Virus record (IMG/VR): IMGVR_UViG_3300029718_000386
Source of the DNA: a virus
Taxonomy: Duplodnaviria; Heunggongvirae; Uroviricota; Caudoviricetes
DNA length: 64,000 nt
Direction: 5' to 3' (one strand)
Shown in pieces: positions 27,394 to 63,634 of the stretch (its first letter is position 1; every line of letters begins with the position of its first letter). The notes below the pieces were generated by a model. The model saw only the letters and a program-made list of their open reading frames with translations. It did not search any database and had not been told where the DNA came from. The translations under genes and the position numbers were made by a program.

Positions 27394-27406
27394 AAATGAA
27401 TAATAA

Positions 27407-27482
27407 TGGTGCGCCGTCAGAGAATTGAACTCTGGACCTTTAGATTATGAGTCTACTGCTCTAACCACTAAGCTAACGGCAC
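27407..27482 (-). tRNA. tRNA-Met (anticodon CAT), elongator-like.
   Basis: Anticodon loop CTCATAA. D-arm AGCTTAGTGGTTAGAGC. Confidence 0.65.
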
Positions 27483-27495
27483 AAACAACACAAAA

Positions 27496-27571
27496 TGGTG
27501 CGCGCACGGGGACTCGAACCCCGGACCAATGGATTAAAAGCCCACTGCTCTACCAACTGAGCTATGCGCAC
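27496..27571 (-). tRNA. tRNA-Lys (anticodon TTT).
   Basis: Anticodon arm GTGGGCTTTTAATCCAT. D-arm AGCTCAGTTGGTAGAGC. Confidence 0.7.
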
Positions 27572-27687
27572 ATATTGGTTACATCTATTAATACCACAAA
27601 TTACAAAAAAACAAAAAATGACCGGCTCAACAACGAAAGTTTTGATCGCGTTGAAAACCGGCCAAGGTGCAATGAAAAAATCCAAAG

Positions 27688-27764
27688 TGGAGCAGATAAG
27701 GGGATTTGAACCCCCACCACCGGTTTGGAAGACCGGGATGCTGACCATTGAACACCATATCTGC
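27688..27764 (-). tRNA. tRNA-Gly (anticodon TCC).
   Basis: Anticodon arm CCGGTCTTCCAAACCGG. T-arm GGGGGTTCAAATCCCC. Confidence 0.8.
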
Positions 27765-27769
27765 ATAAG

Positions 27770-27845
27770 TGGTGCTGGATATCTGACTCGAACAGATTAC
27801 CTTCGGGTTACAAAGCCGATGTTCTACCAGGTGAACTAATCCAGC
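27770..27845 (-). tRNA. tRNA-Thr (anticodon TGT).
   Basis: Anticodon loop TTTGTAA with a C-C at the stem base. T-arm CTGTTCGAGTCAG. Confidence 0.65.
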
Positions 27846-27874
27846 ATTTAGGCGCCTATGAAGGCGCTTGGATT

Positions 27875-28192
27875 TTAGGGCAAAATACACTCCAAAAAGT
27901 GATGCAAATCAGGCATCGGAATGTATTCCCGCCGCACCTCAGCAATGTCCTTGCCGTCGCGATCATGCGGCAAGGCGTTATATTCTTTGACATAATTTTG
28001 CACAAGAGTATTGAGCAATTCTTGTTTCTTCTCTACCAGCTGCTTGCACTGGCGCAGAGACTCAACCGCAGAGACAATCTCATTTTCCTTTTCTCTGCGA
28101 ACGTTTTCTCTGTCCTGTAAAGCGTTCTCAGCTGTTTTTAGCTGCTCTTCAGTGTCATATAGTTCTTTAGTCAATTCTGAAAAATATTTCAT
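27875..28192 (-). CDS. Coiled-coil hypothetical protein.
   Basis: 105 aa, E/K/Q-rich heptad-like sequence. Confidence 0.4.
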   Translation of the reverse strand: MKYFSELTKELYDTEEQLKTAENALQDRENVRREKENEIVSAVESLRQCKQLVEKKQELLNTLVQNYVKEYNALPHDRDGKDIAEVRREYIPMPDLHHFLECILP

Positions 28193-28568
28193 ATTTGTAC
28201 CTCTCTTAAAAATAATTCAAACCTTTGAGTATTACGATAGCAGTTATCAGTAAAATGATAATCCTACTTAACCATAAAACCCACTGTCTACTCGAAACAC
28301 GCAGTGCATAAACGCACACAGATGTTGTTAGCGTAATGGCTATAAGCCAAATGAGACGATTAGTCTCCAAACCACATCGTGCACCACTTCAAGATGCCCT
28401 CAACGTCTGGATCTACATGCTCTTTATTCTTGCAGGCGTTAACGATTAAATCAAACGCCTTTGCCTTATCGGCTGGCTTCATTTCAGTCAATGTTTCAAA
28501 ATCTTTTTCAATCAATGTTTATTACCTCTTTTGACAAATATTGTTGCACATTTGCCCGTGCCAGGCTT

Positions 28569-28644
28569 TGGGCCCGGGAGTGGGATTCGAACCCACGACT
28601 GTTGGCGTATGAGGCCAACCTGCTAACCGCTGCATTATCCCGGT
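28569..28644 (-). tRNA. tRNA-Met (anticodon CAT), possibly initiator-like (unpaired 1:72).
   Basis: Anticodon arm TTGGCCTCATACGCCAA. T-arm GTGGGTTCGAATCCCAC. A1 opposite G72. Confidence 0.5.
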
Positions 28645-43300: not shown

Positions 43301-46300
43301 GATTATCTATATTTGTAACTTTCGTCTTCAGCTTATCTTCTTTAAACTCAACAGACGAAATACCAACAAACTCTGACGGAATTCCATCTGTAAATAGATT
43401 ACTACTCTTTACAAATGGATTAGCAACAACCGGGTTTGTCGATTGCAGACTGTTTTTAATACTGTATTTTGTAGCTAAATCTGTAGCGTAAATATCAATG
43501 GTAGCCTCAGAACACAACACTTTCAAGACAACATAACCATCTCTGTCTGCTGCTTGGTGACGAATAGCAAAGTCGCAAAGCATATTATATAATGCACCAG
43601 GTGTCGCTCCCTCTGCGCTGTCACCAAAATACAAGACTGACTTATTGGCATAATCGAATACGCTATCTCGGTACATCACTCCGGTCTTTGACTTACTATA
43701 CTGTGACTTAATCACCGAATACTTATTCTGTGTGCTGTCCATACCATCAGCGTCCCAGGCTCGTTCAGCATCGGCTGCGACAGGCTTGCCCGTCGGATAA
43801 TATTCCAGCATTACGCCATAGGCCATCATGTCATTCTCAAGAACACTTTGCAAAGAATTGATTTGATCTTCGTTTATGTGATCTTTCAATGCGATCGTGG
43901 AATTGCCGTTGCCCCGTAGCATAAATTGGTCAAATAATTTACTATACTCAACACCATCGTAACCGATAATCGGCAGGCCGTTAGATGTTGTAATAATACC
44001 ATTAAGTTGACTTGCCTGTGTCTGATCACCTTTGCCGATATTTAAGAGTACATCATTACCATTTGCAAAATTGAGTGCAGTAAAATCAGAAAGTGCGTTA
44101 TATCCGTCTATCGTACCCTCTGTATCAGCGGAGTATTCATAATCTGCAAGAGACTTTGAATCAACCTTAAATACTGTTGAAGACTCATCGGAAGTGAATT
44201 CATCACAAGACACAGAATAATACAAATCCTCTGGCGATTTGGTTGTAATTGAAACATAATACTTCTTGATTGGAGTAATATTTGAAATTGCTGCCAACGC
44301 ATCTGCCGCATTCGTCACCTTCTTCTCTGTGATCGGAGAATATGGGTTGTGACATTCGCCCCATCTGTTCGCATACTCCCTTGCTTTAGATGAAGAGAAT
44401 GCATAGTCTTGATAGTCAACGGTGATCGTGAAATTATCATTTGTGGCATCGTCGTGATATGTGTATGACTTATTGAAAGACGGATAAGTATTTGTGCTGA
44501 AGTTTTTAGCATCCGCCTCTTTTTGGGCATTTAATGTGCTTACTTTTTGGGACAGTTCGGCTAAAATTCCAATTTTATTTAGATCAAGAGTCGTGTATGG
44601 AACAAGCTCGTCCTTTTCATTCTTTGTGTACAAAGAATATACAATGTTGTCATTATCAAAAAATGAAACACCGCTTTCGTTATAGGACCGATCCACCGAA
44701 TCGAAAAAGGTTGTCACAGTTTTGCTGTCAGCGTTAGTCTGCTTTTTTAAATAATAATCAAGCTTAGCATACTTGCCTGTGTACTTAATTTCTTGCACAT
44801 TCTCCTTAAAAGACACCGATCCTGAACGAGTTGTCCACACCTTTTGCTTCTCGCCATTTTGATCTATAAAGAAGAACTCAAATTTATATGTTCCCGGTTC
44901 AGTTGGATAATAAGAATAATTCAAATAAGTTCCATCGTCTGAATAAAAATCAAAATCCTTAGAAGTATTGAGAACCTTATCCCTTTCGATGGATCGATAA
45001 ACGCCCAGAGAATCCATCTTATAAACGTTCATTGAGACATTCTCAACAGGATTGCCTTGTTTGTATTCTGGATTTAAGTTAGCTGATTTATCCAGTGTGT
45101 GCAGTCTCAGATCGATACGGTCTTTAGCATACAGGTCAACCTCTGTTAAATATGTTTTTCCAACTATAGATTTTTGCCCTGCCGTATTTGCGTTTTTAAA
45201 CTCTTCTAAAGATGAGACAACGCTCTTTTCCGAAACAGTCTCAAAAGCTTTTGGTGACGTCTTAAATGCCTCTTCATAAGCGTAATAGTTCAGATGGACT
45301 TCATTATAGTCCTTGATGTTCTTAGTTACATCAGACACAGTAAAGTCTTCAGGCATAATAAAGAACTTGTATGTGTCTGCGTCACCATAAAACATTATAG
45401 CCCCATTCTCGTCGGTTTTTAAGATCTGAAAATCGGGGTCACTTCGAGGCTCATTACATTCACTGCAGAAATCCGTATTATACGGATTTGTTTTATATGT
45501 CGGGATGTCAGACAACCACGCTCCACAATTCGCACACACGATGGCATCATAGGCGTTTTTTTCTTTGCATGACGGACAATCCTTGTAAGAACAGCCATAA
45601 CAAGTCCAAGTAAGATCATCTGCAGACTTAAGTCCTACTAATTCTTTATACTTGCTTTCAGACAAAACCATCACGCGCGCGCCAGCAACAGGCGTTCTGG
45701 AATTAAACGTTGCGTTATCATATACTTTGATCTGATTTAACTGATCTCCATAATATGCCTCGGCGTTATACACCAGGTGGTTGTTTGTATAACGCACACT
45801 GCCACCAGTTACCTCGTCATTGTAGTAATAGCGATCAGACTTGTTATCTTTAATGACAAAATAATAGTAATATCCAGAAGTCAAACTATTTGCAGGGAGT
45901 GACACAGTTACATAATTCGGATAAATGCTGTGTCCACAATTAGCCTTTCCGGCTGGATGTTTCGTTCCACACACAGAACATTGCCAGCCTGTTGCAATTG
46001 TTGAACTAATCAAAGAACCACCGGTGTGAACGTAGGCTGTATCATACTGATCCGCAGATCCGCCACCGCCACACAACGCAAGATTGGTCTTTGAATAGCC
46101 GATGCTTGGAGAACCAATATATGCCGTAGATGTATGTCTTCCGTTACTCACTCCTAGTCCACCAGAAAACCACTTATGACACTTAGAGCAACGAATCAGG
46201 GAAACAGAACCGCCAGTATATGGGCTATCCCCTTCATGCCCCTCACAAGCATACGGATACTCTTTAAATGCATTGACATTTGCTCGACTCTCACTCACAT

Positions 46301-49300
46301 TGGCCGTAATATCTTTAACTAATTCCACATCATACGTTGAACCCTGACAAGTCAGCGTAGAGTTAGAATGGCCACAGGCAGAGCACTTCCAAGTCTTGGA
46401 CGAAGCCGTTTGTTGCATATAGGTATTTGTGCATGTTTCTCCATCACATTCAACACCACTATTTGTAGATTCGCACTTTGAGCACTGCCAGGCATCAGGA
46501 ACAATCCAAAACTCGGGGACACCTCCCTGGTCGTCGATAGATTTACCGCAGTCTGGACAAATAGAAGTATTCTCTACGATACTACCACATGAGCACTTCC
46601 AAGCGTAGTTGTTTTGAGCCGTCAAATAATCAGAAAACTTTGAACCACACTTTTCATTGATGTTGTTAAACAATTCATCCGCATTTACCGGCAGTGAAGA
46701 AAGTGATTTTGATCGATACAAAAGCAGTTGAGAACCGGTTTTAAGCAGATTTAAAGCCTCAACAGCTTCATCTCCGCGAGCAAACAAATTGTACTCAATA
46801 CCGCCCTTACCATCGCCCTTAGGCATATAATACAGATACACATTCAGAGTGCCATGCATTTCATCAACAGTAAAATCAGGCTCCCCTGCTACTTCTTTAT
46901 GTTGATAGTTACCAAACACATCTATGTATCCATAAGCACCCACATAGTCGCATGTGCTTCCACCATATTCTACAGACTCTTTGAAATACGGAACATTTTC
47001 TGTAGTCGTTGTTGTATTGCCGTCAGCGTCCGTCTGTTCAACGGTATCTTCATAATAACCGCCTTTGAATGAAAACGCCTTTGCTGCATCCCAGTCTAGA
47101 ACCTTCGACGATACGATAGTGTTGTCCTCATAGATAGAAGAACTATCGTAATCAAAACTGTCTGTCAATGCCACATAGTTCAGAATGACTTTAGAATCAC
47201 TGACCGGAGCAAATGTAACATGGATGTCAGAAGCCTTTAAAGATGCAACATTCGTGTTGAAGGACATTTTATAGAACTGCTCACTGTTTTGTGGATAAAG
47301 TGTTCTGGAACCAACAGGGCTGCCGTCTTTGTTTACTGCACCATCATCTACAACAATGCTCACAATCTTAAAGCCGGTTGATTTTGGAATAGAAACCGTA
47401 ACCACCTTGCCCAATGAGTTATTGTCCGTTACATACATATCTGTTTCCACAGAATTTTCGTAGTCAGTTGAAGCTCCGGCCTGCCCGGAAGGCTTAATCG
47501 CTTTGCTGCTCCCCTCTTGAAGCGTCCAGTTATCTGATACGCCTACCCATTTGGAGATTTTCTTTTGAGCCTCATCTGCAGCTTCTTTTGCATCAGCCGC
47601 AGCTGCCACTGCCTGATCATCACTTGGATCAATTGTTACATCTTTATAATTGGACTCATAATAATTGATGGCATTTAGCAAATCATCAATTCCGGACAAA
47701 GAACCGGCTGCTGAAATATTGTTTTGCAGCTGCCACTGCGCATAATAGGTTACTTCACCTTCAGCAGGCGTCTTGATCGTTGTTACCTGATCTTTAGCAT
47801 AATCATAGTTATCTGCCGTAGCACCCCAGCCCTTGAATGTTCTGTTCAGATCTTCCAAATCGCCGTTCAGCCCGGCAATTGCAGCTGTGCCCGTACAATT
47901 ATGCCCATTTACTGAAGGCGCATTTATCGTCTGCCCAACGTTAGCAGTTGTTGAACTGATTGTTTCGCCGCACAGTGCACAAACAAAGTTTACCGTAGAC
48001 TGCAGCGTGAATGTGTACTTCGCATAATACACTGTCACTTTAGCACTTGGCATCGTAATGTCATTACCGACAGTCAATGAAGCATCATCCGACTTATCAT
48101 TCACCGTATAATCAGGATTTGTTCCCCAATAGCTGAATGTAATTTTATAATCACTCAGCGGATGACCTTTGTATTGCAAATTACTTAAATTACTGGAGTC
48201 GTTATGAGATTCGCCTGCAGGTACAGGACCCTGTGTAGAGCCTGGTGCACCACGCAGCAACGCAATTTCATTTTCATCGATAGAACACTTAAATAAAACT
48301 TTATTCTCGTTCGTCAGCTTGAGGGCGTACTTTGCATAATACTTTTGCGTGCTGCTTGGCACAGTTGTTTGAGAACCTGCCTTATGGTTGCTCAACACGC
48401 TCAAACTATCATTCAATGTACCGGTAGCCAGCTTAGCATTTGCGTTACTGTCTTGACCCCAGCCTTGGAATGTAATCGAATAATCTCCAACATCAATGGT
48501 CTTGCCATTGTATGTAATCTTTCCACCATTGACAGAGCACACATGTTTTGAACCAGTGGGGATAGTATACTTTTCTCCGGCGTAATGTTCTCTGTCATTT
48601 TTACTGGTTGAAGTATCATACAGTTGTGCTCCGCACAAACTGCAGTAATACACCGCTCTGCCTTTTGCATTCTCTTTCTTATCCAGACACATCCAGAATG
48701 TGGTATCGCCATAAATCTTTTTCTGACTTGGCACCGGATTAGTCATTTTTGAGCCATTCTTTGACGCGCTCCAATGTTTATAGCTGTAAGTGTATTTGTA
48801 GTTGTTGTGCTTTTGCGGATGCGTCTTTTCTTGATCGTTGAAGTAGCTTCCGGGAACTGTCTCACCGTGTGCCACTGTAATCGTCTTTAAGTTTGCTCCA
48901 TCGAGAGAACATTTTAAATAAGCCCTATGCGCCACGGTCTTTAGATTAAACAGCACACGCACGGTATTATAACGACCACCACAGATGTAGCCCTTAACAC
49001 CGGCAGTTTTATCTTTGCCCTGAAAATACGTTGCTTTGTTATAAATATCAGGTGCATTCATATGCCAAGCCAAATTGACAGACACATTGGACCGGCGGGA
49101 TGTATAGAAGGTCAGCTTGTTACCGCTCACTTCTACCTTCATAAACGGTTCTGCAGGTTTTGTTTTCAGCTTAGCGGAGCTTACTGGAACATAGCCATAG
49201 TAAGAAGTTGTGTTTTTTTCTTCATCGCCAAAGTACACACAGTAAAACTTGCCATTTCGTGTTTTACCCAACACAGAAGCGCCTCTGTACTGTGGACCTT

Positions 49301-50462
49301 TTTTACCTTTAGACGTAACCATTCTATTACGCATAGCGCTATCCACATTACAAATCACCTTAGACTGTGTAGTTGCTTGCGAATAGACTTTAACATCACC
49401 GGTAAACGTGGTGGTAAATACTGAGCCATTACTGTTTCTGATAGGAAGCACAATCTTATTTGGATCATACTTGCCATACTCAGTACCCAAAAACTTTTTG
49501 GAAACATAGTAAGTAGACTCATAACGCTTTTTGCTGTCATTCCAAGCCATCTGCGTATAATCATTACTACCCAAATCGCTGAAGTTACGCCATTGACTTC
49601 CACTCTTATATTGGAACTGCTGCCCATTCATCTGCATCTCAGCAGCTTCCAAAATCTCGTTATAGTAATCAGGACAATCTTTTACATTATTGAAATACTT
49701 ATTTTTTACAGTGTAATAGAAGTCATGCCAATAATAACGATAAGAAGCGTCAATGCTCTTGCTATAGGACCCCACGATATCCTGACTGCGCTCTTTATTC
49801 TTTGCATTGGCCTTATACGATTTAGAACGCACATCCGTCCACTTCGTATCGTTGCCGAAGCCAACGCGCTTGCCCTCATCCAGCTCCCACAGAATACACT
49901 GTGTAGCAATAAAATACAGTTGCTCACGGTAAAACTGATCGCCGGAGTTGGTGGTGAATTGTTTAAAGCCGTTGATGAGGACGTAATAAATTCTCCGCGC
50001 CCTCTTTTCTGGAATCTTAATACCGTCACTTTTTGCAGCATTGATGAAATCAGTAATCTTGTTTGGATCTACATTGATTGTCGTTACCGCACTGGCTCCG
50101 CTCTCATCACTGGTATAACCGTAAGATCTGGAAAGACGAAAAATCGGCACTTCATCTTTGCCAGCATTCTTTTCACTGCCGGACAAATCTGACGATACAT
50201 ACTTTCTCAGAAGATTGGTTGTACCGGCACCGGCTTTATTCCCGGCAATTTCTCTACTGTATTCCGGAATGCGAATTTTACCATTCTCATTCTTACCGTA
50301 GTTGTAGTTCCAGGCAACTTTGTATTTCTTACCATTGGAAATGGTAATCTGTCCGGATGCTACGTTGGCAAATGCCTGAATGGCTCCGACCGGAAATGTT
50401 GTAAAGAACATTAGCAATGCCAGAAACACAGACAAAATTCTTTTTGGAATAGATTTTTTCAT
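40386..50462 (-). CDS. Giant (3,358-aa) secreted surface protein. It has Listeria-Bacteroides-type repeat (Flg_new-like) domains, Ig-like beta-sandwich repeats and numerous CxxC...CxxC modules.
   Basis: RBS AAGGGGGAGG. Signal peptide MKKSIPKRILSVFLALLMFFTTFPVGAIQAFA. Repeated F(K/Q/S)GWG...YYAKW/YAQW signatures. There are at least 10 Cys clusters, for example CSLCGAQL, WQCSKCESTNSGVECDGETC, WKCSACGHSN, WTCYGCSYKDCPSCKEK and CANCGAW. No LPXTG was seen. Confidence 0.7.
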   Translation of the reverse strand: MKKSIPKRILSVFLALLMFFTTFPVGAIQAFANVASGQITISNGKKYKVAWNYNYGKNENGKIRIPEYSREIAGNKAGAGTTNLLRKYVSSDLSGSEKNAGKDEVPIFRLSRSYGYTSDESGASAVTTINVDPNKITDFINAAKSDGIKIPEKRARRIYYVLINGFKQFTTNSGDQFYREQLYFIATQCILWELDEGKRVGFGNDTKWTDVRSKSYKANAKNKERSQDIVGSYSKSIDASYRYYWHDFYYTVKNKYFNNVKDCPDYYNEILEAAEMQMNGQQFQYKSGSQWRNFSDLGSNDYTQMAWNDSKKRYESTYYVSKKFLGTEYGKYDPNKIVLPIRNSNGSVFTTTFTGDVKVYSQATTQSKVICNVDSAMRNRMVTSKGKKGPQYRGASVLGKTRNGKFYCVYFGDEEKNTTSYYGYVPVSSAKLKTKPAEPFMKVEVSGNKLTFYTSRRSNVSVNLAWHMNAPDIYNKATYFQGKDKTAGVKGYICGGRYNTVRVLFNLKTVAHRAYLKCSLDGANLKTITVAHGETVPGSYFNDQEKTHPQKHNNYKYTYSYKHWSASKNGSKMTNPVPSQKKIYGDTTFWMCLDKKENAKGRAVYYCSLCGAQLYDTSTSKNDREHYAGEKYTIPTGSKHVCSVNGGKITYNGKTIDVGDYSITFQGWGQDSNANAKLATGTLNDSLSVLSNHKAGSQTTVPSSTQKYYAKYALKLTNENKVLFKCSIDENEIALLRGAPGSTQGPVPAGESHNDSSNLSNLQYKGHPLSDYKITFSYWGTNPDYTVNDKSDDASLTVGNDITMPSAKVTVYYAKYTFTLQSTVNFVCALCGETISSTTANVGQTINAPSVNGHNCTGTAAIAGLNGDLEDLNRTFKGWGATADNYDYAKDQVTTIKTPAEGEVTYYAQWQLQNNISAAGSLSGIDDLLNAINYYESNYKDVTIDPSDDQAVAAAADAKEAADEAQKKISKWVGVSDNWTLQEGSSKAIKPSGQAGASTDYENSVETDMYVTDNNSLGKVVTVSIPKSTGFKIVSIVVDDGAVNKDGSPVGSRTLYPQNSEQFYKMSFNTNVASLKASDIHVTFAPVSDSKVILNYVALTDSFDYDSSSIYEDNTIVSSKVLDWDAAKAFSFKGGYYEDTVEQTDADGNTTTTTENVPYFKESVEYGGSTCDYVGAYGYIDVFGNYQHKEVAGEPDFTVDEMHGTLNVYLYYMPKGDGKGGIEYNLFARGDEAVEALNLLKTGSQLLLYRSKSLSSLPVNADELFNNINEKCGSKFSDYLTAQNNYAWKCSCGSIVENTSICPDCGKSIDDQGGVPEFWIVPDAWQCSKCESTNSGVECDGETCTNTYMQQTASSKTWKCSACGHSNSTLTCQGSTYDVELVKDITANVSESRANVNAFKEYPYACEGHEGDSPYTGGSVSLIRCSKCHKWFSGGLGVSNGRHTSTAYIGSPSIGYSKTNLALCGGGGSADQYDTAYVHTGGSLISSTIATGWQCSVCGTKHPAGKANCGHSIYPNYVTVSLPANSLTSGYYYYFVIKDNKSDRYYYNDEVTGGSVRYTNNHLVYNAEAYYGDQLNQIKVYDNATFNSRTPVAGARVMVLSESKYKELVGLKSADDLTWTCYGCSYKDCPSCKEKNAYDAIVCANCGAWLSDIPTYKTNPYNTDFCSECNEPRSDPDFQILKTDENGAIMFYGDADTYKFFIMPEDFTVSDVTKNIKDYNEVHLNYYAYEEAFKTSPKAFETVSEKSVVSSLEEFKNANTAGQKSIVGKTYLTEVDLYAKDRIDLRLHTLDKSANLNPEYKQGNPVENVSMNVYKMDSLGVYRSIERDKVLNTSKDFDFYSDDGTYLNYSYYPTEPGTYKFEFFFIDQNGEKQKVWTTRSGSVSFKENVQEIKYTGKYAKLDYYLKKQTNADSKTVTTFFDSVDRSYNESGVSFFDNDNIVYSLYTKNEKDELVPYTTLDLNKIGILAELSQKVSTLNAQKEADAKNFSTNTYPSFNKSYTYHDDATNDNFTITVDYQDYAFSSSKAREYANRWGECHNPYSPITEKKVTNAADALAAISNITPIKKYYVSITTKSPEDLYYSVSCDEFTSDESSTVFKVDSKSLADYEYSADTEGTIDGYNALSDFTALNFANGNDVLLNIGKGDQTQASQLNGIITTSNGLPIIGYDGVEYSKLFDQFMLRGNGNSTIALKDHINEDQINSLQSVLENDMMAYGVMLEYYPTGKPVAADAERAWDADGMDSTQNKYSVIKSQYSKSKTGVMYRDSVFDYANKSVLYFGDSAEGATPGALYNMLCDFAIRHQAADRDGYVVLKVLCSEATIDIYATDLATKYSIKNSLQSTNPVVANPFVKSSNLFTDGIPSEFVGISSVEFKEDKLKTKVTNIDNLATAQVTSREDAQNATARVTLDNTLQYLNLYTSKIATPLAVLKDYNVSPDGNATVMNEGNDLLTDADGYIYTLNANCSLDAATKDFGKSNFIYVGYKLEDNDGSNPAYPKNTHPYKMSVRLLSSVDKALENDDRRLFGLFGTSTRVTPNGTTANNIFSFKSDVQGSKPLGYDTVEHYTAEMDLKTYQIKTSIQNGTITKTVTGLRAGNYKNIAGADSVVTFTPDPGYQITSVKIDGKELNSGEKLTGAQLVWTGDTKSGKVSIPGTLSADHTVDVVCTRTYTITTSITNGTITDTITKIKYGETKNIEFTPNDGFMVSKIVIDKGLDTEKTISDVYKYWSGGSYTFENITADHSFDVECTAGIVVNTYLSKEAYETAGGSTDPIDPLKRQVDLLPYAIPDSAVKEKNVSSDTMTELEFAKMLYGPETNRDTIDENSWAAQFGEVFALSPEEQIENMGFAISSGVQANTKISSYYNKEDFPFVFSYYFPKELLDSLTAYYLEPSTMWFGCGPSGTANLKYQLCYEVPGHKDSDKKHIGLFGGVPTDGSKGATYNVGCYVNEKYLPVDVKFQYPNAKYSYGTDVVTSFIVDNHSTENFTDQNALNATGGLYAKLYNLNTGEWQYEAIENVEVKYDKKLIGRYNCQYAARTAVVPAAKNNLIYYTVRTPAVSSIDDSYESLGYKFYGVVPWVQLRYNDEENGQFVYCDSGRQDKNLVQLNDLDNTSSTNYEGYNLNGGDGYSYKDPTNDKPYANTTSWQEYTCENGVFKLHTYTARLGFQENLLKPLASAGAGSAQNPSKKVENNGDENYWETKSGYSLESRATANLTPQRKTDPALPDGSCVNAQSALAYYPEYNYQTINGKYSALYAMYGLKSAPTDRKYFGPYASLRPTGANTNENPYWFKFMEYEDEDSSARSLHHVPVWYPNDTDYKIQVRVADCWTPSGMLSYVGDSNAVKINGSLFDDFKTRETSPW

Positions 50463-51967: not shown

Positions 51968-53194
51968 CTAGGTTTTTCGTACAAATTCTTTATACGTGTT
52001 ACTAGAGACGATCACAATCGATATATCGATTATTTCACAGTCCTGGTTAAAGAATTCAATATTAGCATTTTCTTCGCGCAAATAACACAAGGCAAATTGT
52101 TTTGCAGACACATAATTCAGCTTCATTTTTGAATATAACGGAGCCACAAACCCACAGATTTTTCCATAAGAGTTGTTTTTATTTACGTTATTTAAAGCAG
52201 AAATGCTTAATTCACTGTATGCGAACTCTGAATCATCCAAAACAACCAATGTGTTCAACAGTGCTGATGTAAATGCACCCAAAACCGGCTTTCCGTCCAC
52301 AAATATTTCTTGACAAGGAAGGCACCATGGGGTATACTCCCGCATTAAACTGATTGTTTTCTCCGTTTTGTAACCAACACACAAGACAGCATGATTAAGT
52401 TCCCCATCATTAGTAAGAAGTATTACAGGAATTCTAGATTGGACGTAAGTAGACAATTCTTCAATCAAGTCGAAATAAGAATAGCAACCAGAAGCCATCC
52501 ACCTCAAAACAGGTAAATAGCCGGCACGTGTAAGCACTGCAGACATCTGTTTTCCACTTATTCCATCTGCTGCAGATAACGTGTTTTCAGGATCATCCAG
52601 GACTTCTGCGAATCGTGTAGCTGCATAATCATGAAATTTTGGGAAATAATTCAAGATTCCCCAAAGAGAATCGTGTCCACAACACAAACCATATGGAAGT
52701 TGTTTTATACATGGGAAAGCATCTAACGTTAGTTCATACCCCAAGTGATGAATTTTGCCCGGATACGATATCACAGAATATTTATCATTTAGTAAAACAG
52801 ACGGATCTATCGACACTCTTCCGAGCCTATAAGGCGAGTTTACTGGAAATAACGTGCAAAATCCAAGGAATTTATAATCATCGGGAAAAGAAAGTACTCC
52901 TATTGAAACTGATTCATGTTTTGAAAAGAACATAACACGGAGACAGCGCTTGTCAATATTGGCATATTTCATACCATGCTTATAAACACAACTCAAATAT
53001 TCGCGATCATAATATGGGTATTCCATAACAATCAGGTCTGTTTTATCCATTAACTTAACCTGTTTGCGCATCTGGCACATCACTTCATCAGTAAAAAACG
53101 AACGTATAATTTGGTCGTCGATTATCTCGTCGTCCTGCAAAAAGTCAAAGTTTGTTTCGCCGCTGACATCAATACTTATGGTTTTTATCATCAT
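51968..53194 (-). CDS. Papain-fold cysteine peptidase-like protein (C39-like).
   Basis: Cys motif LCCGHDSLWGILNYF and His motif NHAVLCVGYK, in the order and spacing typical of C39/papain-like peptidases. RBS AAGAGGAG. Confidence 0.4.
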   Translation of the reverse strand: MMIKTISIDVSGETNFDFLQDDEIIDDQIIRSFFTDEVMCQMRKQVKLMDKTDLIVMEYPYYDREYLSCVYKHGMKYANIDKRCLRVMFFSKHESVSIGVLSFPDDYKFLGFCTLFPVNSPYRLGRVSIDPSVLLNDKYSVISYPGKIHHLGYELTLDAFPCIKQLPYGLCCGHDSLWGILNYFPKFHDYAATRFAEVLDDPENTLSAADGISGKQMSAVLTRAGYLPVLRWMASGCYSYFDLIEELSTYVQSRIPVILLTNDGELNHAVLCVGYKTEKTISLMREYTPWCLPCQEIFVDGKPVLGAFTSALLNTLVVLDDSEFAYSELSISALNNVNKNNSYGKICGFVAPLYSKMKLNYVSAKQFALCYLREENANIEFFNQDCEIIDISIVIVSSNTYKEFVRKT

Positions 53195-53700: not shown

Positions 53701-53898
53701 TTAATAAAATCGAATATTGCGCGCGTAATCTGCTGAAATTGATCGCTTACGTTCCTCTTCGCTAATCTGATTAAGACGCTTAATATAATTCTTATCAGAA
53801 AGAATTGGGCCGGTACATCTCACCAAATGGCCGACATCAGGGTTAGGCACGCTCGGCCTTTTCTTTGAGTAGTTATCGTTCATTTTTTCACCTCTCAT
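53701..53898 (-). CDS. Small hypothetical protein.
   Basis: 65 aa. Overlaps the upstream gene stop. Followed by terminator GGGAGTTCCtaacGGAACTCCC at 53540..53575. Confidence 0.3.
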   Translation of the reverse strand: MRGEKMNDNYSKKRPSVPNPDVGHLVRCTGPILSDKNYIKRLNQISEEERKRSISADYARNIRFY

Positions 53899-54696
53899 AG
53901 CTATACCCCGTCATAACGAAAACATCGCCAAGTACATATACAGGTGTGCCATCGCTGGCAAGACGATTTTTTGTAATTATGCCTAATTGAACCAATGTGT
54001 CTATTTGGTCCTGCGTGAGCTGAAACATTTGATTACAAGATTCTACAGATCCCCACTCGGCGAACACATACTTCAGCTTTGCCAGATATTGCAAAAATTT
54101 GATTTGCTCATCGTCCACCACATCACTATACAGCACCTGGATTATGCTTGCAACGCAGTAATATCTATATATGTCCGCAAAATCTTGCCAATACAGTCTT
54201 ATTTCGCTCTTGACGTCTTGTTTACTAAAAAATATACTGCACAATTTCAGAATAATGCCGCTAAATTGATGTAAATCCAAAAACGCTAACATTGTGCGAT
54301 CGTCAAATGTATCCGGGCCTTGTCTGGAAATTCCACCTGCGATTGTTTTAGGGATTTTATTCTCAAATACGATAGAATCATATACAGCAGAGTAAAAAAT
54401 TCCATGATTTCGTTGGAATTTGATGAGTTCGTTCCACAATGATGTTATCTCTCCATCATTAAGAGTTTCAGTCTTCGATTTGTTACACTGCTCTCGAATT
54501 AGCCTGCAACATTCCTTTCCACTACCAAACGCAGCGTATTGGTCATCTTCGTTTGGCCACTTCAACTGACGGAGCAAACTATCTTTCAGCATCCCTATAC
54601 TTGATTGGCCATTTCCAATATAAAAGCCTTTCATTGACTGAGCGTCTTGAAATGCTTGTGCATCAATTCTATCAATAGTATCATACCAACTCATAT
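53888..54696 (-). CDS. Hypothetical protein.
   Basis: Likely start MSWYDTIDR (GGAGGT 13 nt upstream). The track ORF extends further 5' without an RBS. Confidence 0.35.
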
Positions 54697-55504
54697 TATT
54701 ATTCGCGACCTCCATTTTGTATTTATTCTTCAAAATATTAATACCACACAAGCAAAAAAATAAAAAGGAACCCGTCCAAGGTCCCTTTTTATTTGAAAAA
54801 AGTTCTAATGCCCTTTTCACTCCGGAGAAAGACTTCTGTGTACTAAGTGATGCTTTTTAAAACCATTCTCTTGTTGTTCTGCGCCAAGTTGTGACAATCG
54901 ATAAATAAAAAGGGAGTCGAATTGCTCCAACCCCCTCAGGTATGAGTCCGCAAACGCATACCCCTATTAATATAATTATACACCAAACAGAAAATAAAGA
55001 CAAGGCTCATTGAAACAAAAGTGCAAAAAAACAGTGAAAGCGCCAACAACGACGCCATCACTGGCTATTACTCCGCATATCCTATCCGGAGTTTCTTTGT
55101 CATGAGTTACGATGCTGCCCATCAGCCACGAGTGCCATTTCTGACACTCAACATGATGAAGAACTTTTACCGACTTCTTCTTGTCTACAACTTTAGATGC
55201 TCAAACATCGCAGAAATCACTTCCTGCACTTTTAATATTGCATTTTTTGTCAACTACATATAATTTTTTAGCACCGTTGTGCTCTCCAGCTGTTAAAACT
55301 GCAGCCTATTCTGTTTCAATTCTGCAAAAGCAATAAAAAAGTCACACCGGGTTGCGTATGAATAATCAGAGGCGTGGTGGGGTCTGTTGACATTATTATA
55401 CAGATTTTCGATATTACCGTCAAAGTCGTTTTAAATCATTTTTTTGCGAATCAGAGCCACTTACTAAAATTATAACATAGTTTTTTTACGTCTCTATGAA
55501 TAAA

Positions 55505-55540
55505 AACGGCCCTCCTTTTGGAAGGCCGAAGAGTTTTTGA
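55505..55540 (-). terminator. Terminator after the TIR-like gene.
   Basis: aaaaaCGGCCCTCCttttGGAAGGCCGaagagttttt. Confidence 0.5.
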
Positions 55541-55555: not shown

Positions 55556-55951
55556 CTATTTTACATTCTCATTAATCCAAGACTCCAGAGAATCTTTACG
55601 ACAAGCAATTACCTGAATGCCAAATTCACTTATATATGAACTATTGCTATCGGTAATTCGGATGGCAACTATCGGTTTATGATTATCAACGGCAAACTTA
55701 ATTTCATCTATTGACATTCCATTGTTGTTCGCAGGTCTGTTGGAGCAAACAACCACATCAGCACGTTTGATCCGCCGTTGAATCTGCGGGTCAACATTGT
55801 ATCTCTTGTCAATGAAATCAAGCGGAGCGGTCTCCGGAACTGACTTATCAGATATTTCGTATTTTGTTCTGTCAAGCAATTCATAAATTTTCGCGTAGTC
55901 TTCATAGCTCCATCTGTGTGGAATGAATACTTTAATTTTGTTTTGTTGAAT
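55556..55951 (-). CDS. TIR-like (DUF1863-like) small protein.
   Basis: Start MVIQQNKIKVFIPHRW with RBS AAGAGGAG. Pattern KVFIPHRWSYEDY...RADVVVCSNRPA...IDEIKFAVDNHKPIVAIR resembles TIR-like/STIR folds. The assignment is tentative. Confidence 0.35.
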   Translation of the reverse strand: MQQNKIKVFIPHRWSYEDYAKIYELLDRTKYEISDKSVPETAPLDFIDKRYNVDPQIQRRIKRADVVVCSNRPANNNGMSIDEIKFAVDNHKPIVAIRITDSNSSYISEFGIQVIACRKDSLESWINENVK

Positions 55952-55974
55952 TACCATTATATACATCTCCTCTT

Positions 55975-56943
55975 TTAAATAATATTTTTCTTGGCGAGCA
56001 TCCAATAATGCTGTCCAAGCGCCGTAAGCTTACAGGATTTACGGTAAATTGCAGCGTAATACATATGCTTTTCGCCGACTGGAACCACTAAATTCAATTT
56101 AACATAATGTTGCAAAACAGCAAAAATTGATTCATGTTCTTTATTGACTTCTTTTGTGTCGGCTTCATGTTTATCTGGTTCATATGTTGGATCCAGTTTA
56201 AACTCAGCACTAGGCTCGTCAAAAAGCTCGGTAATGCGTCGAAGATCTTCGATAGAAATCGGAGGGTTGTTTTTTCTCAAAGAAACAAAGTTCTTAATGT
56301 TTGCTTTAAATACTGGGCGCTGCTCCCACGGACCAAGTGATCTATCTATGTAGGCGTATAGACTACCAGGAGACACATCACCAAGCAAATTCATCGCGCC
56401 ACCCATCAATGCTTCAACTAACAACGAAGTGAAAACCCCTGAGCCGTTATTCTCAGACGCAACATCATGAGCCTCACACGCAGCTAATACTACCGTGCCG
56501 TCATCTATTACAGAGCGATTGGGTGTTGCTACACAACTTGCTATCGATCCACTGCAACAACTATCTAAAATAATGATCTTATTTTGTGCTTTAGAATCAG
56601 CAGCAAGCTTCATCACATCATTTAACGGGAACCCATCACCAACGTCTCTCACTTCACTTGTACATAAATATTCACCAACCGAATCAAAGGATCCATGCCC
56701 AGCAAAGTAGAACAACGCCACCTCTGTTTCACTTTTAAATAACTCTTCAACAGCCGCTTTAAGCTGTGATCTAGAGATACGCGAGTCTTTACTGGTGGCA
56801 CACATTTTTTTCACTCCAAAATTAATTGTGCCATCTGCGTTTCTTTCCAATACTGTTCCAACAGCATTCGCATCGTTTACACAACCGCTAAGATTTGGAA
56901 CGTGTTCATAGTTATCAATTCCGACGCACAGTGCTTTTCTCAT
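55975..56943 (-). CDS. Caspase-like (peptidase C14 / metacaspase-type) protein.
   Basis: ALCVGIDNYEHVPNLSGCVNDA. His box YFAGHGS. Cys box IILDSCCSG. RBS AAAGGAAC. The TIR-like gene immediately downstream has a separate RBS and follows after a 24-nt gap. The track ORF version of that gene would overlap this one by 31 nt. Confidence 0.65.
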   Translation of the reverse strand: MRKALCVGIDNYEHVPNLSGCVNDANAVGTVLERNADGTINFGVKKMCATSKDSRISRSQLKAAVEELFKSETEVALFYFAGHGSFDSVGEYLCTSEVRDVGDGFPLNDVMKLAADSKAQNKIIILDSCCSGSIASCVATPNRSVIDDGTVVLAACEAHDVASENNGSGVFTSLLVEALMGGAMNLLGDVSPGSLYAYIDRSLGPWEQRPVFKANIKNFVSLRKNNPPISIEDLRRITELFDEPSAEFKLDPTYEPDKHEADTKEVNKEHESIFAVLQHYVKLNLVVPVGEKHMYYAAIYRKSCKLTALGQHYWMLAKKNII

Positions 56944-57379
56944 AATTTGTTCCTTTCTTTAAAATTCAATTTAACGTTCTACAGCAACCTCTCTCATAAC
57001 ATACATTACACAGCATTTATCCGTTTAGTGATTTAAAGTCTTGATAAATCGCATTATAAATCACATGTTTTTGTTTTGCCATCAAATGAACACTGTGTAA
57101 ATTCGCGATACTTGTGCATAAGTTATCACCATCCTTCCTAAATGTTTGTATTTGTAACACATTTCACTTACAGCATACAATCAATGACAATATTTGTCAA
57201 TGACTTATTGTAAAAATTATACATTTTATATACAATTTATATACAATGTTATCGTTAAATCAACATAGTGAGGCTCGCACCAAATCAACATATACTAACA
57301 ACTCTTACATAATGATTTAAAGCAAACAAAAAAGACCCACCAAAGGTGGGCCTATCAAAATAATTAAGGATCAAAAAAA

Positions 57380-57802
57380 TTAGTCGCATACTAGACACAA
57401 ATCGGAATAACCACCACGGTCGATCCAGCAATAAGAAATTCTGGTTCTACCATAATCAGTAACCATGAGATCCATCAAGCTTTCGTGATCTTCAGCGTAT
57501 TCAAACCATGAATTTTTAAAGTCTTTGTAATAATAATTCGACTTAGGATTACTGCTAAGAGTTCTAAACGAATGATTCTTTACAGCAACATCATATTCAT
57601 GTGTTCCGGCATCGATCTTACGTACAGTTACAGTCTTTTTGTAACCGTATTTCTTTGCTACTTCATTTGTGGGTTTAAGCACATTATCAACAACCCACTG
57701 CTTTTGAGCAGCCGTCAGGCTCTCTGAAGTGTCTTCCAGGACCTTCACCATCTGAATATCCGTCCAAGCTGAATATGACGATAGGTAGCCCTTTGATATC
57801 AT
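57380..57802 (-). CDS. Hypothetical protein.
   Basis: 140 aa. Terminator GACCCACCaaaGGTGGGCC at about 57335..57360. Confidence 0.35.
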   Translation of the reverse strand: MISKGYLSSYSAWTDIQMVKVLEDTSESLTAAQKQWVVDNVLKPTNEVAKKYGYKKTVTVRKIDAGTHEYDVAVKNHSFRTLSSNPKSNYYYKDFKNSWFEYAEDHESLMDLMVTDYGRTRISYCWIDRGGYSDLCLVCD

Positions 57803-58719
57803 CTCCAGGCTTTCCCCCGCCCCACACCGTGCGTGCGACTTTCACCGCACACGGCGTTCCATCAAACATTTAATTCAAGTGAAACAAGATTTATGTTTTA
57901 TATTTTTTTTGATAAAATGAATCTGTTTGACTTAGGGCCGTCCCTCCACGGTTTATTATCACCGCTTCATTGGTACCATGCCCCTACTCAGATATACCCC
58001 AAACCGTCTTTCTTCAAGTTTTGGCAACTTGTTTCCCCAACGGTTCCTGAACATCCCCATTGCAGTGGGTTCACATTTCAGTGGATACCTTTCTATACGT
58101 TCCGTTGTTATTATCTTTGCATATAGACTTAGGTCTACTCTATGAGCCAGTCAATCATTCAAAAGAACGGTCATATTTGGCTGACCGAGGATTGTCACTG
58201 TGTACATCGCTACCCATCCTCGATTGACGCTGCGTAGCAGCTCCTGCATTTCTACAGGCGGAAATATTGGCCCGTACATTCGAGTATTCGTCAGTGCGCT
58301 CAGCGCACATTCTAACCATATCTATTTTATAGACGCCCGCACTATCCTCTGCAGCCCAACGGGCCTTTCGTGCACATTTCTTGTGCGACGGCAAACTTCA
58401 TGCGACTTTTGCTGGCTTATAACCATTTGTTTCTGCAAGAACAAATCGCTATCAGCAGTATTAGCGGTCGGTTTCGAAGGACCATAACCTTCTCATTCCC
58501 GGACTCACAACAACAGTTGGGTTGATTTTTAATGGTATATTTCAAGCTTATACACAAAAAAGAAGAACAAAATCAGCACATTGCAAACAACATACAATGC
58601 TGCAATATAAGTTGCGACATTGTACATATCGCCAGTTGATTATTGTACTATCTGTGTAAAAAGAATAAAGCCCTTGAAAAATCGAATAACAAAAGCCAAC
58701 TATCGGCAACATTAAAAAA

Positions 58720-61156: not shown

Positions 61157-62422
61157 TTAATTTAACTCTGTGTTTTCTGTCATTCTCATATAAATTGACC
61201 TATTACACAAATGGAGAAGCTCTGGATTGATGTTAATCAAAGAAATTGTTTTATTGAACTCTTCTATACCCAACTTTTCAACTATCTTTGCTATCATTTC
61301 GTCCATGAATGATGAACTGGCAATTACTATTTCATCAAAGTCAATCACGATAGGAAATTTTGTTCGTTTCATAATGTTCAGTATGTCATTTCGAATAGCT
61401 CTCCCTGATTGCCTCGTTCCAAAATCTTTCGTATTGTCAATCACTTTATAGATAATAGTGTCTAGCGCGTCTGACATCATGTTTTCAATTCGAATATCAC
61501 AATCATCGAAATCGCCAATAGTACTAAGCGCTTTTGTAATATCCGTTTTTCTGGTAAGTTCTATTTGGAAATCAACAATTGTACCACAATGTCCATCTCC
61601 CAACACTTGAACGGAACTTCCACTGTCCCACTCATTATCCTTGAACCGAAGATAAGAACGACCGGTAGAAATTGAGAACCAACCGCCATTAGCTTGAACT
61701 ATCTGAGACAATCCATACAAGCCATTTCCCTGACCTTTGCCATCACCCACACCTTCACGTATAGCCAAGTTAATTGCTTCAACTTCATTTTCTGGGTGTA
61801 AGCCGCCATCAAGAAGAGACTGATAAATGCCAATTCCACAATCATACACGCATATTGCGAGTCGTTTTCTGCTTTTGTGGTATTGGGCCATAACATACCC
61901 TCTTTTGCTATGACTGTGGATCAGTACATTATCCATAATCTCGTATATACACCAAAGTAGCCCTTTCAGCACACCGTCCTCGCACTCCACCGTCCGGCTA
62001 ATGCAATCAACAAAAGCCTGATTAATCGCAGCCGCTTGTTGACTAACATCACCATCAGCTTCATAAACGAATATTTTATTCAAAATCGATCTAGACGATG
62101 CGATCTCTTCCGGTGGCAAATTCAGTGGATTCTGAAATTCACAAAACTTCAAATAGCTATTATTTAGTATAACCACTTTTACATCAATGCCATAAATACC
62201 TGGATACTCCTGTATGATGGCACTGATTGGAACACAAGCATCTGGGAAAATATGTTCACGAGCACATAAGCACACAACCGTTATATTTTCTTCATCAATT
62301 TTTTTACAATAATTTCTTGCCATCTTCATACAGCGTATAAAATCATTAACACAACATGGATTATCCATTTTATGTATGATGACATGAGTCCCAGAAACAG
62401 ACACGTTGTTGAAATCACTCAT
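61157..62422 (-). CDS. GHKL-type ATPase (histidine-kinase-like ATP-binding domain) with a C-terminal DUF4325/STAS-like segment.
   Basis: N-box LWCIYEIMDNVLIHS. G1 VYDCGIGIYQSL. G2 GDGKGQGNGLYGL. C-terminal FPIVIDFDEIVIASSSFMDEMIAKIVEKLG. Likely start MSDFNNVSV (RBS AAGAGGAGAG). Confidence 0.5.
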   Translation of the reverse strand: MSDFNNVSVSGTHVIIHKMDNPCCVNDFIRCMKMARNYCKKIDEENITVVCLCAREHIFPDACVPISAIIQEYPGIYGIDVKVVILNNSYLKFCEFQNPLNLPPEEIASSRSILNKIFVYEADGDVSQQAAAINQAFVDCISRTVECEDGVLKGLLWCIYEIMDNVLIHSHSKRGYVMAQYHKSRKRLAICVYDCGIGIYQSLLDGGLHPENEVEAINLAIREGVGDGKGQGNGLYGLSQIVQANGGWFSISTGRSYLRFKDNEWDSGSSVQVLGDGHCGTIVDFQIELTRKTDITKALSTIGDFDDCDIRIENMMSDALDTIIYKVIDNTKDFGTRQSGRAIRNDILNIMKRTKFPIVIDFDEIVIASSSFMDEMIAKIVEKLGIEEFNKTISLININPELLHLCNRSIYMRMTENTELN

Positions 62423-62519
62423 ATTTTTCACACATCTCTCCTCTTTTACACTAAACATCACTTTAAGAATAGACTATATTTCAACAAATGTCAAGCGCAA
62501 CTTTTATTCAGATGTTTTC

Positions 62520-62954
62520 TTATATTTCAAGCTCACCATAGTACAAGGCCATGGAATCTTTGCTAACGATGTTAGGAGATTTAACACCAATTGGCATACA
62601 ACGCCAAGCGAGTCTCCAAGGATCCTCCATAACAGCTAACTGACTTAGCCACCGCGCATCCTTATCACCATAAAAATCCAACACTCTATCAATGGAGTCC
62701 TTTTGATTATCAGACAAGTAGCTTTCATTGCCGCGTTCATCAGAAGCGGATACAACAAACCTTCTTTCGTTTCTGTGAAACAGTTCAGGACACACCGGAC
62801 CGCTGGCCCAAGCCTCGAAATCCTCGTCAAATAGAGGAGCATCATCCCATACCAAAGACCAGGCCTGTGCATAATAACATAGTTTTTGTAGTTTCATGCA
62901 GGACATATCACCACACTTTTGCAGGATGTATGCCGCCACATCGAATACGCTCAA
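62520..62954 (-). CDS. Panacea-domain (DUF4065, SocA-like) protein.
   Basis: VFDVAAYILQKCGDMSCMKLQKLCYYAQAWSLVW matches the DUF4065 N-terminal signature. Probable TTG start with RBS AAGGTGG. Confidence 0.55.
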   Translation of the reverse strand: MSVFDVAAYILQKCGDMSCMKLQKLCYYAQAWSLVWDDAPLFDEDFEAWASGPVCPELFHRNERRFVVSASDERGNESYLSDNQKDSIDRVLDFYGDKDARWLSQLAVMEDPWRLAWRCMPIGVKSPNIVSKDSMALYYGELEI

Positions 62955-63067
62955 CTTCAATCGCCACCTTATATTCTCATGCTTATTAATACTACAATTC
63001 CAGAAAAAGAGAAAAACCAACACACAAAAAAACCACCGAATTCTCGGTGGTTTCTGTATATTCTCTG

Positions 63068-63514
63068 TTATTTCTCTTCTGTCTCTAAATTGACAACCAT
63101 CTTCTGCAACACAGATATTAGCGCATCTTTTTCTCCTGCGTCGATTCCGACAAGAAGCGTATTAGAGAAATTATTTGTAGCTTTGACAGCAGCCTTGGCA
63201 ACATTGTTTGCCTTTTCAGTCAGCGCAACGCAAACTGCGCGCCGGTCCACTACATTGCGTTCCACGCTCACCAAGCCTTTTACTCTTAGGCTTTCTACAT
63301 TGCGGCTGATCATACCCTTCGAATAGTGAACACTCTCACTAATGTGCTTAACCGACAAAGGCTTTCCTTGCTGCATTAAGCAAGACAGGATATCCAACTC
63401 GCAAGTTGTGACACCATACTCTGCAGCAACCTGTTTTGTTGCGTCCGAATACGCATTCATAATTAAGCTTGCTGCAGCGAATAATTCGCCATTGTATTTT
63501 TTAGCCATAATACA
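63068..63514 (-). CDS. MarR-family transcriptional regulator.
   Basis: Winged-helix segment LDILSCLMQQGKPLSVKHISESVHYSKGMISRNVESLRVKGLVSVERNVVDRRAV. Confidence 0.7.
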   Translation of the reverse strand, partial: CIMAKKYNGELFAAASLIMNAYSDATKQVAAEYGVTTCELDILSCLMQQGKPLSVKHISESVHYSKGMISRNVESLRVKGLVSVERNVVDRRAVCVALTEKANNVAKAAVKATNNFSNTLLVGIDAGEKDALISVLQKMVVNLETEEK

Positions 63515-63634
63515 AGTCCTTTCTGATGTATCACGCTCTCCTCGTCCAACATCATAAAACACAATAATAAATTTGTCAATGAAAAATATGCGGCAAAGAA
63601 AAAAAGACCGACGAAAAGTCGGTCTTAAATAATG

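Follow-up and report, generated by a model that had tools for sequence, protein, structure and literature searches.

The window analysed here is the whole 64,000-nucleotide (nt) stretch of DNA held in IMG/VR as virus record IMGVR_UViG_3300029718_000386 (Caudoviricetes), and the system in question is a two-gene operon on its minus strand, in which a gene for a caspase-like protease is followed by a gene for a short TIR-domain protein (Table 1). The two proteins were characterized by profile searches, alignments and structure models, and compared with those of type IV Thoeris, a published bacterial defence system, and of other systems that use related proteins.

The protease and TIR genes

The product of the upstream gene carries the complete caspase/metacaspase signature that a preliminary description of the locus had read from its translation, namely LCVGIDNY, GCVNDA, YFAGHGS with His83 and IILDSCCSG with Cys129 and Cys130. 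Pfam assigned residues 2-203 to Peptidase_C14 (PF00656; E 4.4e-17), and the roughly 120-residue C-terminal extension noted earlier is likewise present, as about 119 amino acids (aa) remain beyond this match, for which the Pfam scan returned no family. The protein was also recognized by the PADLOC model 'caspase' (E 6.2e-17) and, over its full length, by phrog_18397 (E 5.6e-81) of the PHROG families from prophage proteins, and its profile searched against the PDB found only eukaryotic metacaspases (metacaspase-4 and metacaspase-1). Metacaspases and paracaspases are relatives with specificity for arginine and lysine. Among 34 aligned homologues H83 and C129 were invariant and C130 was variable. 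The protease has at least 7148 homologues, and its C-terminal domain, when searched alone, was contained in 598 clusters at 50% identity. The domain occupied about residues 205-325 of proteins of 310-340 aa in most of the best 150 of these 598 cluster representatives, many others being shorter fragments, and Peptidase_C14 was present in four of the five longer proteins with this domain that were scanned with Pfam.

The program-made open reading frame (ORF) of the downstream gene begins at a TTG codon (55556-56005) and overlaps the protease gene by 31 nt, as had been stated before. Translation almost certainly begins at the ATG at 55957 and yields a protein of 133 aa, because this codon stands 9 nt after the sequence AAGAGGAG, homologues begin there and gene calls from metagenomes also give 133 aa. 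With this start the gene keeps the ribosome-binding site of its own that the preliminary description had ascribed to it, and the spacer between the two genes (AAGAGGAGATGTATATA) becomes 17 nt rather than the 24 nt given there.

The TIR motifs KVFIPHRWSYEDY and IDEIKFAVDNHKPIVAIR are present in the small protein, which scored 21.3 bits against Pfam ThsB_TIR (PF08937; cut-off 21.2 bits, E 3.7e-4), and it was matched by the PADLOC model ThsB (E 1e-3) and by phrog_6988 (E 9e-8); a search of its profile against the PDB found nothing. An AlphaFold (AF2) model with 35 homologues as input reached a predicted local distance difference test score (pLDDT) of 76 and consists of alternating beta-alpha units. 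Its top match in the PDB by Foldseek was the Bacillus cereus TIR 8fz9, followed by DNPH1 and the nucleoside 2-deoxyribosyltransferases, the folds that had been named beforehand as those to look for. The TIR-like nature of the small protein, proposed in the preliminary description, is thus supported. Glu85, within the motif SIDEIKF, was invariant in 35 of 35 aligned homologues; a search with the protein found 1112 homologues. The protein is a bare TIR domain with no sensor or oligomerization extension, and its residues 71-81 form an invariant, clade-specific loop, CSNRPANN-GM.

Relation to type IV Thoeris

Operons of a short TIR gene and a caspase-like gene have already been published as type IV Thoeris (Rousset et al., bioRxiv 10.1101/2024.10.24.620036, 2024; Science 2025), so that the pairing is not unexplored but has been described and mechanistically dissected; its effector was later renamed ThsE (10.64898/2025.12.03.692087). 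In this system the TIR protein makes N7-cyclic ADP-ribose (N7-cADPR) on infection, and this signal turns on the caspase-like protease, whereupon many proteins are cut after arginine and the infection is aborted (10.1101/2024.10.24.620036). The characterized pairs are EcTIR with EcCaspase from E. coli 328 and PsTIR with PsCaspase from Pseudomonas sp. 1-7; the E. coli operon protects against phage T6 and is slightly toxic on induction, defence is lost in the PsTIR E79Q and PsCaspase C129A mutants, and PsCaspase is activated by metabolites derived from EcTIR and from PsTIR alike (10.1101/2024.10.24.620036). Binding of the signal by the C-terminal domain of the caspase is a hypothesis of the same authors, whose detection rule asks for a ThsB or TIR_2 hidden Markov model match with an i-Evalue up to 0.1 at most one gene away from the caspase, and whose survey lists 27 type IV systems in Firmicutes (10.1101/2024.10.24.620036).

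The EcTIR coding sequence was taken from Table S2 of that paper and had matches of 100% identity in 14 complete E. coli genomes; in strain 165 it is followed by the gene of a 321-aa "caspase family protein", and both lie in a lambdoid prophage, flanked by the genes for holin and antiterminator Q. The window protease aligned with EcCaspase from residue 1 to 319 (322 versus 321 aa) at 41% identity (E 1e-79), with 41% in the protease domain and 44% in the C-terminal domain, and its catalytic cysteine bears the same position number as C129 of PsCaspase. The TIR protein shared 28% identity with EcTIR over 93 aa by BLASTP (E 9e-8) and was aligned to it by hhalign with 96.6% probability (E 5.7e-10), its Glu85 lining up with E84 of EcTIR and E79 of PsTIR. 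The published detection rule also picks up the pair, given the ThsB_TIR E-value of 3.7e-4 and a TIR gene 17 nt from the caspase stop codon. The locus therefore agrees with type IV Thoeris in every feature that can be tested on sequence: a Peptidase_C14 effector homologous to EcCaspase with an intact His/Cys dyad, the family-specific C-terminal domain, an adjoining short TIR gene of the ThsB_TIR or TIR_2 (PF13676) kind and the conserved catalytic glutamate.

We consider it very likely that the pair is an intact type IV Thoeris operon, carried by the chromosome of an uncultured Firmicute from the gut, in which a signal made by the TIR protein activates the caspase-like protease and the infection is aborted. 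The earlier proposal of an anti-phage or abortive-infection module built from a caspase and a TIR is upheld by the 41% identity to a validated caspase, by the TIR evidence and by the mobile and defence contexts in which homologous pairs occur, such contexts being shared with type IV Thoeris at large. The N7-cADPR signal, the arginine specificity, the abortive outcome and the trigger are assigned to it by analogy with the E. coli 328 and Pseudomonas sp. 1-7 systems.

Several observations weigh against this assignment or qualify it. The validated pairs were tested by experiment, whereas the window locus and the TIR clade to which it belongs are known from sequence alone. The TIR protein is divergent, being barely at the Pfam threshold and 28% identical to EcTIR, and the identity of its product therefore hangs mainly on the conservation of the caspase C-terminal domain, the ligand role of which is itself hypothetical. 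Direct similarity to PsTIR was considered and discarded, as BLASTP found none between the two proteins and hhalign gave a probability of 0.7%; EcTIR and EcCaspase are what connects the window pair to the validated systems. For the protease the AlphaFold model was poor (pLDDT 57), for which reason its Foldseek matches to the MALT1 paracaspase and to metacaspases are only supportive, and the S1 pocket and ligand pocket lie beyond structural reading. Single-sequence searches of the PDB for a solved type IV Thoeris protein returned nothing relevant. Besides, the immediate neighbours in the species of the window are only weakly defence-like. The locus also departs from the published examples in gene order, which is caspase then TIR in the window and TIR then caspase in the cloned examples (both orders occur in Table S1 of Rousset et al. 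and in related loci), in its TIR, which comes from a Clostridia-centred clade and cannot be aligned to PsTIR, and in having no second TIR gene, which many Table S1 entries possess.

As a type IV Thoeris operon the pair would share a single transcript, running from a promoter in the spacer upstream of the caspase gene to the terminator behind the TIR gene, and the protease would be inactive in uninfected cells. On phage infection the short TIR protein would sense the phage and its Glu85 would convert NAD+ into N7-cADPR, which would bind the C-terminal domain of the caspase (residues 205-322), probably in a dimer, and activate the His83/Cys129 dyad. The activated protease would then cut many cell proteins after arginine, such as EF-Tu and ribosomal proteins, so that growth would halt and the infection would be aborted ahead of progeny release. 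The roles might also be reversed, with the caspase as sensor or activator, for instance by proteolysis of the TIR protein or of a protein from phage or host, and the TIR as an effector that kills by depletion of NAD+. Some bacterial TIRs do act as NADase effectors, SpbK being an example (PMC12847820), and some caspase-like or CHAT proteases are upstream activators in systems linked to CRISPR and gasdermins (10.1101/2024.10.24.620036). In the homologous systems, however, the TIR alone makes a diffusible small molecule on infection which switches on proteolysis by the caspase, the window caspase retains the full-length architecture of a type IV effector, and the TIR has none of the sensor or oligomerization extensions mentioned above, which makes such a reversal very improbable.

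Other known systems share parts of this arrangement. In type I Thoeris, formed by a ThsB TIR and a SIR2-SLOG protein (ThsA), a ThsB-type TIR likewise makes an NAD-derived cyclic nucleotide that acts on a separate effector, and the ThsB models match the window TIR; in contrast, the window effector is a cysteine protease and not a SIR2 NADase, and the signal of the homologous system is N7-cADPR and not 3'cADPR. Neither SIR2-SLOG (ThsA) nor Macro-transmembrane (ThsC) effector domains, which define types I and II, were found with Pfam and PADLOC in the operon or in the scanned neighbouring ORFs. The caspases of type III CRISPR-Cas systems (SAVED-CHAT/PCaspase) and of gasdermin systems are also caspase-fold cysteine proteases serving as executioners or activators in bacterial immunity, and PCaspase is promiscuous and possibly arginine-directed (10.1101/2024.10.24.620036). 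They differ in that cyclic oligoadenylates activate them by way of SAVED-CHAT proteolysis, or in that they cleave gasdermin, and no CRISPR, SAVED, CHAT or gasdermin gene was detected nearby (CHAT reached only 13 bits, below the Pfam cut-off). The best NCBIfam match of the window protease, over residues 3-203, was the EACC1-associated caspase (NF047832), an assignment that was rejected, as its 98.2 bits fall short of the curated cut-off of 140; only the protease domain is covered, and the Pfam and NCBIfam scans of the neighbours contained no EACC1 partner.

Conservation of the pair and its genomic settings

In a scan of one genome per species, a caspase with 47-70% identity to that of the window was encoded at 40 loci. 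They came from Lachnospiraceae, Oscillospiraceae, Peptostreptococcaceae, Dehalobacter, Mitsuokella, Treponema, Helicobacter, Geobacter, Tenacibaculum and candidate phyla. A homologue of the window TIR (tblastn) lay directly downstream of the caspase in 34 of the 40, starting 10-140 nt after the stop codon, or 555 nt in one locus, and five more (L012, L035, L036, L038 and L040 in our numbering) had abutting short ThsB_TIR ORFs of EcTIR-like or PsTIR-like type, upstream or downstream. A short TIR gene thus abuts the caspase on one side or the other in 39 of the 40 loci, the remaining one (L037) being truncated and left out. Such a frequency lies far above what chance would give. A functional link between the TIR and the caspase is independently supported by a natural fusion, the metagenomic protein P0413 (836 aa), in which TIR_2, TPR repeats, Peptidase_C14 and the type IV Thoeris C-terminal domain are joined in a single chain, and which could be a form of the system that consists of one protein and carries its own sensor. 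On an uncultured Ruminococcus contig a second caspase homologue, 40-50% identical, lies directly downstream of a caspase-TIR pair (L010, 3843-4557), an arrangement that suggests tandem type IV Thoeris systems.

Closely related caspases were paired with TIRs from at least three clades, which fits one shared signal with frequent exchange of the TIR gene. The same TIR-to-caspase logic may nevertheless operate with a different molecule, the Clostridial TIR clade making another NAD-derived signal, such as another isomer of cADPR, to which the C-terminal domain would be tuned; the operon would then be a functional variant of type IV Thoeris. Such a change would be in keeping with the low similarity to EcTIR and the bare recognition by Pfam, with the invariant loop at residues 71-81, where EcTIR has ILAGVYASYSK, and with the diversity of signals among Thoeris types, which include 3'cADPR, 2'cADPR, cADPR and histidine-ADP-ribose (His-ADPR) (10.64898/2025.12.03.692087). 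We regard it as quite unlikely. In a three-way alignment PsTIR and EcTIR could not be aligned to each other, yet both activate PsCaspase, so that divergence of the TIR is no predictor of a change of signal; of the two halves of the caspase the C-terminal one is conserved better (44%); and caspases 63-70% identical to that of the window pair interchangeably with window-type and EcTIR-type TIRs (L021 and L026 versus the others), which argues for one shared signal. The broader notion that the Clostridia-centred clade either senses a different trigger or makes a different NAD-derived signal for a co-evolved caspase C-terminal domain, and would thereby form a functional subtype of type IV Thoeris widespread in gut Firmicutes, is also unlikely.

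Beyond the window, homologous pairs were found as cargo of conjugative elements together with a relaxase, a type IV secretion system (T4SS) coupling protein, a serine recombinase and TnpV (L053-L056), with ParE/RelB-type modules adjoining, and others were accompanied by Schlafen/AlbA_2-HATPase and HD-dGTPase-like genes, with serine recombinases adjacent (L057-L059). An island of Clostridium chromiireducens (MZGT01000125.1; L060/L061) combines a caspase and a 157-aa TIR with a pair of STM3845 and reverse transcriptase, an orphan 127-aa TIR, Abi_2 and an AAA_15/SMC-like ATPase. The orphan TIR is 64% identical to the window TIR and lies three genes from the caspase. The Table S1 entry for this species was considered as a direct bridge to the window and set aside, since the 64% identical TIR (P0213) is three genes away from a caspase that is itself 44% identical. 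Salmonella and a phage contig from the human gut also yielded a homologue. The exact caspase protein was present in 134 assembly blocks from the species of the window, on contigs of up to 0.9 Mb.

On contigs of that species the upstream flank is constant and comprises a Tad-pilus-like cluster, MarR, SocA/Panacea, HATPase_c-DUF4325 and an fn3 surface protein, and the region downstream of the TIR gene varies. The 3358-aa ORF at 40386-50462 (minus strand), which gave weak zinc-ribbon matches and a precomputed DUF8195 match only, is absent from two contigs (L046 and L048) and thus belongs to a strain-variable segment that starts just past the TIR gene; L048 has a Thg1-like gene and others in its place. 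In one metagenome the caspase gene is split into ORFs of 51 and 276 aa (L051, 4240-5209), and the 276-aa form (P0248) occurs on three contigs, so that inactivated effector alleles circulate in the population.

These settings also bear on whether the pair could serve another purpose than defence and show no response to phage, for instance as a module for cell death during development or for addiction, in a toxin-antitoxin-like manner, to a mobile element. Pairs on conjugative elements do stand beside ParE/RelB-type modules, a gene with a SocA/Panacea antitoxin domain lies near the window pair, and induction of the E. coli 328 operon has a slight toxic effect. Against this, two homologous operons protect in a phage-specific manner that needs both active sites, the gene content and catalytic residues of the window match those of the protective systems, and split or truncated caspase alleles in nature (L051, P0248) would not be expected of an addictive module. 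We therefore hold a role apart from defence to be extremely unlikely.

Operon signals, other elements in the window and significance

The regulatory signals around the pair are listed with the genes in Table 1. Terminator-like hairpins bound the caspase and TIR genes on both sides, at 57353-57333 and 55528-55507, and mark the two genes as a self-contained unit; the former stands 27 nt beyond the stop of a 123/140-aa ORF (57380), and the latter, 28 nt past the TIR stop codon, agrees with the earlier remark that the operon has its own terminator. The spacer upstream of the caspase gene measures 390 nt. It is no feature of the family, as the caspase gene follows the preceding gene after only 14 nt in the versions on conjugative elements. 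The best promoter-like site in this spacer is a candidate by consensus match only and implies a 5' leader of about 230 nt. A structured leader or riboswitch was considered and rejected, since the 227-nt leader folds no better than shuffled sequences (z = 0.38) and Rfam gave nothing at E <= 1 beyond noise.

Table 1. Features of the caspase-TIR operon and its flanks (positions within the window; strand "." where none applies)
Feature	Position	Strand	Details
Caspase-like protease gene, thsE-type	55975..56943	-	322 aa + stop; catalytic dyad His83/Cys129
Ribosome-binding site of caspase gene, GAAAGGAA	56950..56957	-	7 nt before ATG; read from sequence
Protease domain (caspase/metacaspase-fold), residues 1-204	56332..56943	-	Pfam Peptidase_C14, EcCaspase alignment
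Caspase C-terminal domain, residues 205-322, putative N7-cADPR sensor	55978..56331	-	44% identity to EcCaspase C-terminal domain
Short TIR-domain gene, thsB-type	55556..55957	-	133 aa + stop; predicted catalytic Glu85
Ribosome-binding site of TIR gene, AAGAGGAG	55967..55974	-	inside intergenic spacer; 9 nt before ATG
Terminator-like hairpin of preceding gene, upstream operon boundary	57333..57353	-	9-pair stem, 6 G-C, then TTTTTGTTTG
Intrinsic-terminator-like hairpin, operon end	55507..55528	-	CGGCCTTCCAAAAGGAGGGCCG then TTTTTATTCA (T-tract); 9 pairs, 7 G-C
Best promoter-like site	57172..57200	-	-35 TTGACA (57200-57195), 17-nt spacer, -10 TATGCT (57177-57172); 10/12 consensus matches
Second promoter candidate	57082..57053	-	
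Inverted repeat TGACAA-tat-TTGTCA (TGACAAtatTTGTCA)	57185..57199	.	6+3+6; overlaps -35 hexamer

The inverted repeat at the promoter-like site had been placed at 57183..57197 and suggested as an operator; its position is 57185-57199, and it can be extended to 57181-57203 (10+3+10) with one mismatch. The repeat occurs once in the window, and 39 of 100 shuffles of the window gave at least one match at one mismatch or fewer, so that it is no more than chance would produce. Its conservation was confined to near-identical contigs of the same species (L043-L049 and L051), and none of the 40 distant loci carried it. A role as operator is speculative, and on these grounds we did not retain it.

The neighbouring ORFs of 140 aa (57380-57802), 310 aa (53888-54820) and 408 aa (51968-53194) were rejected as further components, as they carry no TIR, defence or Pfam signal and are not kept beside the pair in other genera. 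A group II intron without an ORF lies at 57775-58521 (minus strand), probably reaching to about 58560 (Rfam group-II-D1D4-5, 113.8 bits; Intron_gpII domain V/VI, 62.2 bits), a short way upstream of the Thoeris operon, with the gene of the 606-aa fn3 surface protein on one side and the 123/140-aa ORF on the other, and its domain V/VI was the sole nucleotide match of positions 40000-64000 to phage and plasmid collections. Many proteins of 123 and 140 aa also fall into the 90%-identity cluster of the fn3 protein; these are the lengths of ORF 57380-57802, which had no BLASTP similarity to the cluster representative. The shared cluster may have arisen as an artefact of clustering, or from gene models that read through or are spliced across the intron. 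Farther upstream, a HATPase_c and DUF4325 (STAS-like) protein, a SocA/Panacea antitoxin-domain protein and a MarR-family regulator stand in a row at 61157-63562 (minus strand), the first of which matches the N-terminal part of the PADLOC DrmA model (4.5e-24). Past the end of the window, related contigs continue into a Tad/Flp-pilus-like cluster with RcpC/SAF, AAA_31 and T2SSE.

Apart from these, the window holds 27 tRNA genes for nearly all amino acids in tight arrays at 22750-28644, all on the minus strand, and no rRNA was detected in it. Inside the array lies a 447-aa protein with RRXRR and HNH domains (23881-25224, minus strand), which we take to be IscB-like, beside a HEARO RNA (25298-25544, minus strand; 131 bits) that is presumably its guide (omega) RNA; a second HEARO RNA (2180-2426, minus strand; 119 bits) has no adjoining full-length IscB ORF. 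A TnpB-type protein (OrfB_IS605 and Cas12f1-like TNB; 10893-12281, minus strand) is adjoined by a DUF1848 protein (12498-13433, minus strand) that matches the PADLOC model RTasDUF1848, associated with defence-associated reverse transcriptases (DRT). Genes of replication and maintenance type were found at 3040-6963, 8733-9782, 15187-17355 and 19917-21932 (all on the minus strand), namely a pair of AAA_5 ATPase and VWA/CobT-like protein, a Toprim/DUF3991 primase-like protein, a RecD-like helicase and a type IA topoisomerase. As these resemble genes of mobile elements, much of the window may be an integrated element. An origin from a huge phage or megaplasmid, to which the exact caspase on contigs of 534-550 kb and the 27-tRNA array had pointed, was rejected: contigs of 0.9-1.1 Mb carry the same proteins, and only domain V/VI of the group II intron had a nucleotide match in the phage and plasmid collections.

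The system itself is already known, TIR-to-caspase signalling in bacteria having been described and dissected in 2024-2025, and nothing conceptually new arises from the locus. Its modest value lies in the version found in gut Clostridia, which is very common, as illustrated by the exact caspase in 134 assembly blocks and by homologues in the thousands. As the TIR clade of this version is barely caught by standard models, annotation pipelines may under-call this version. The related caspases accompanied by TIRs of different clades are, in addition, useful material on the compatibility of TIR proteins with their effectors.

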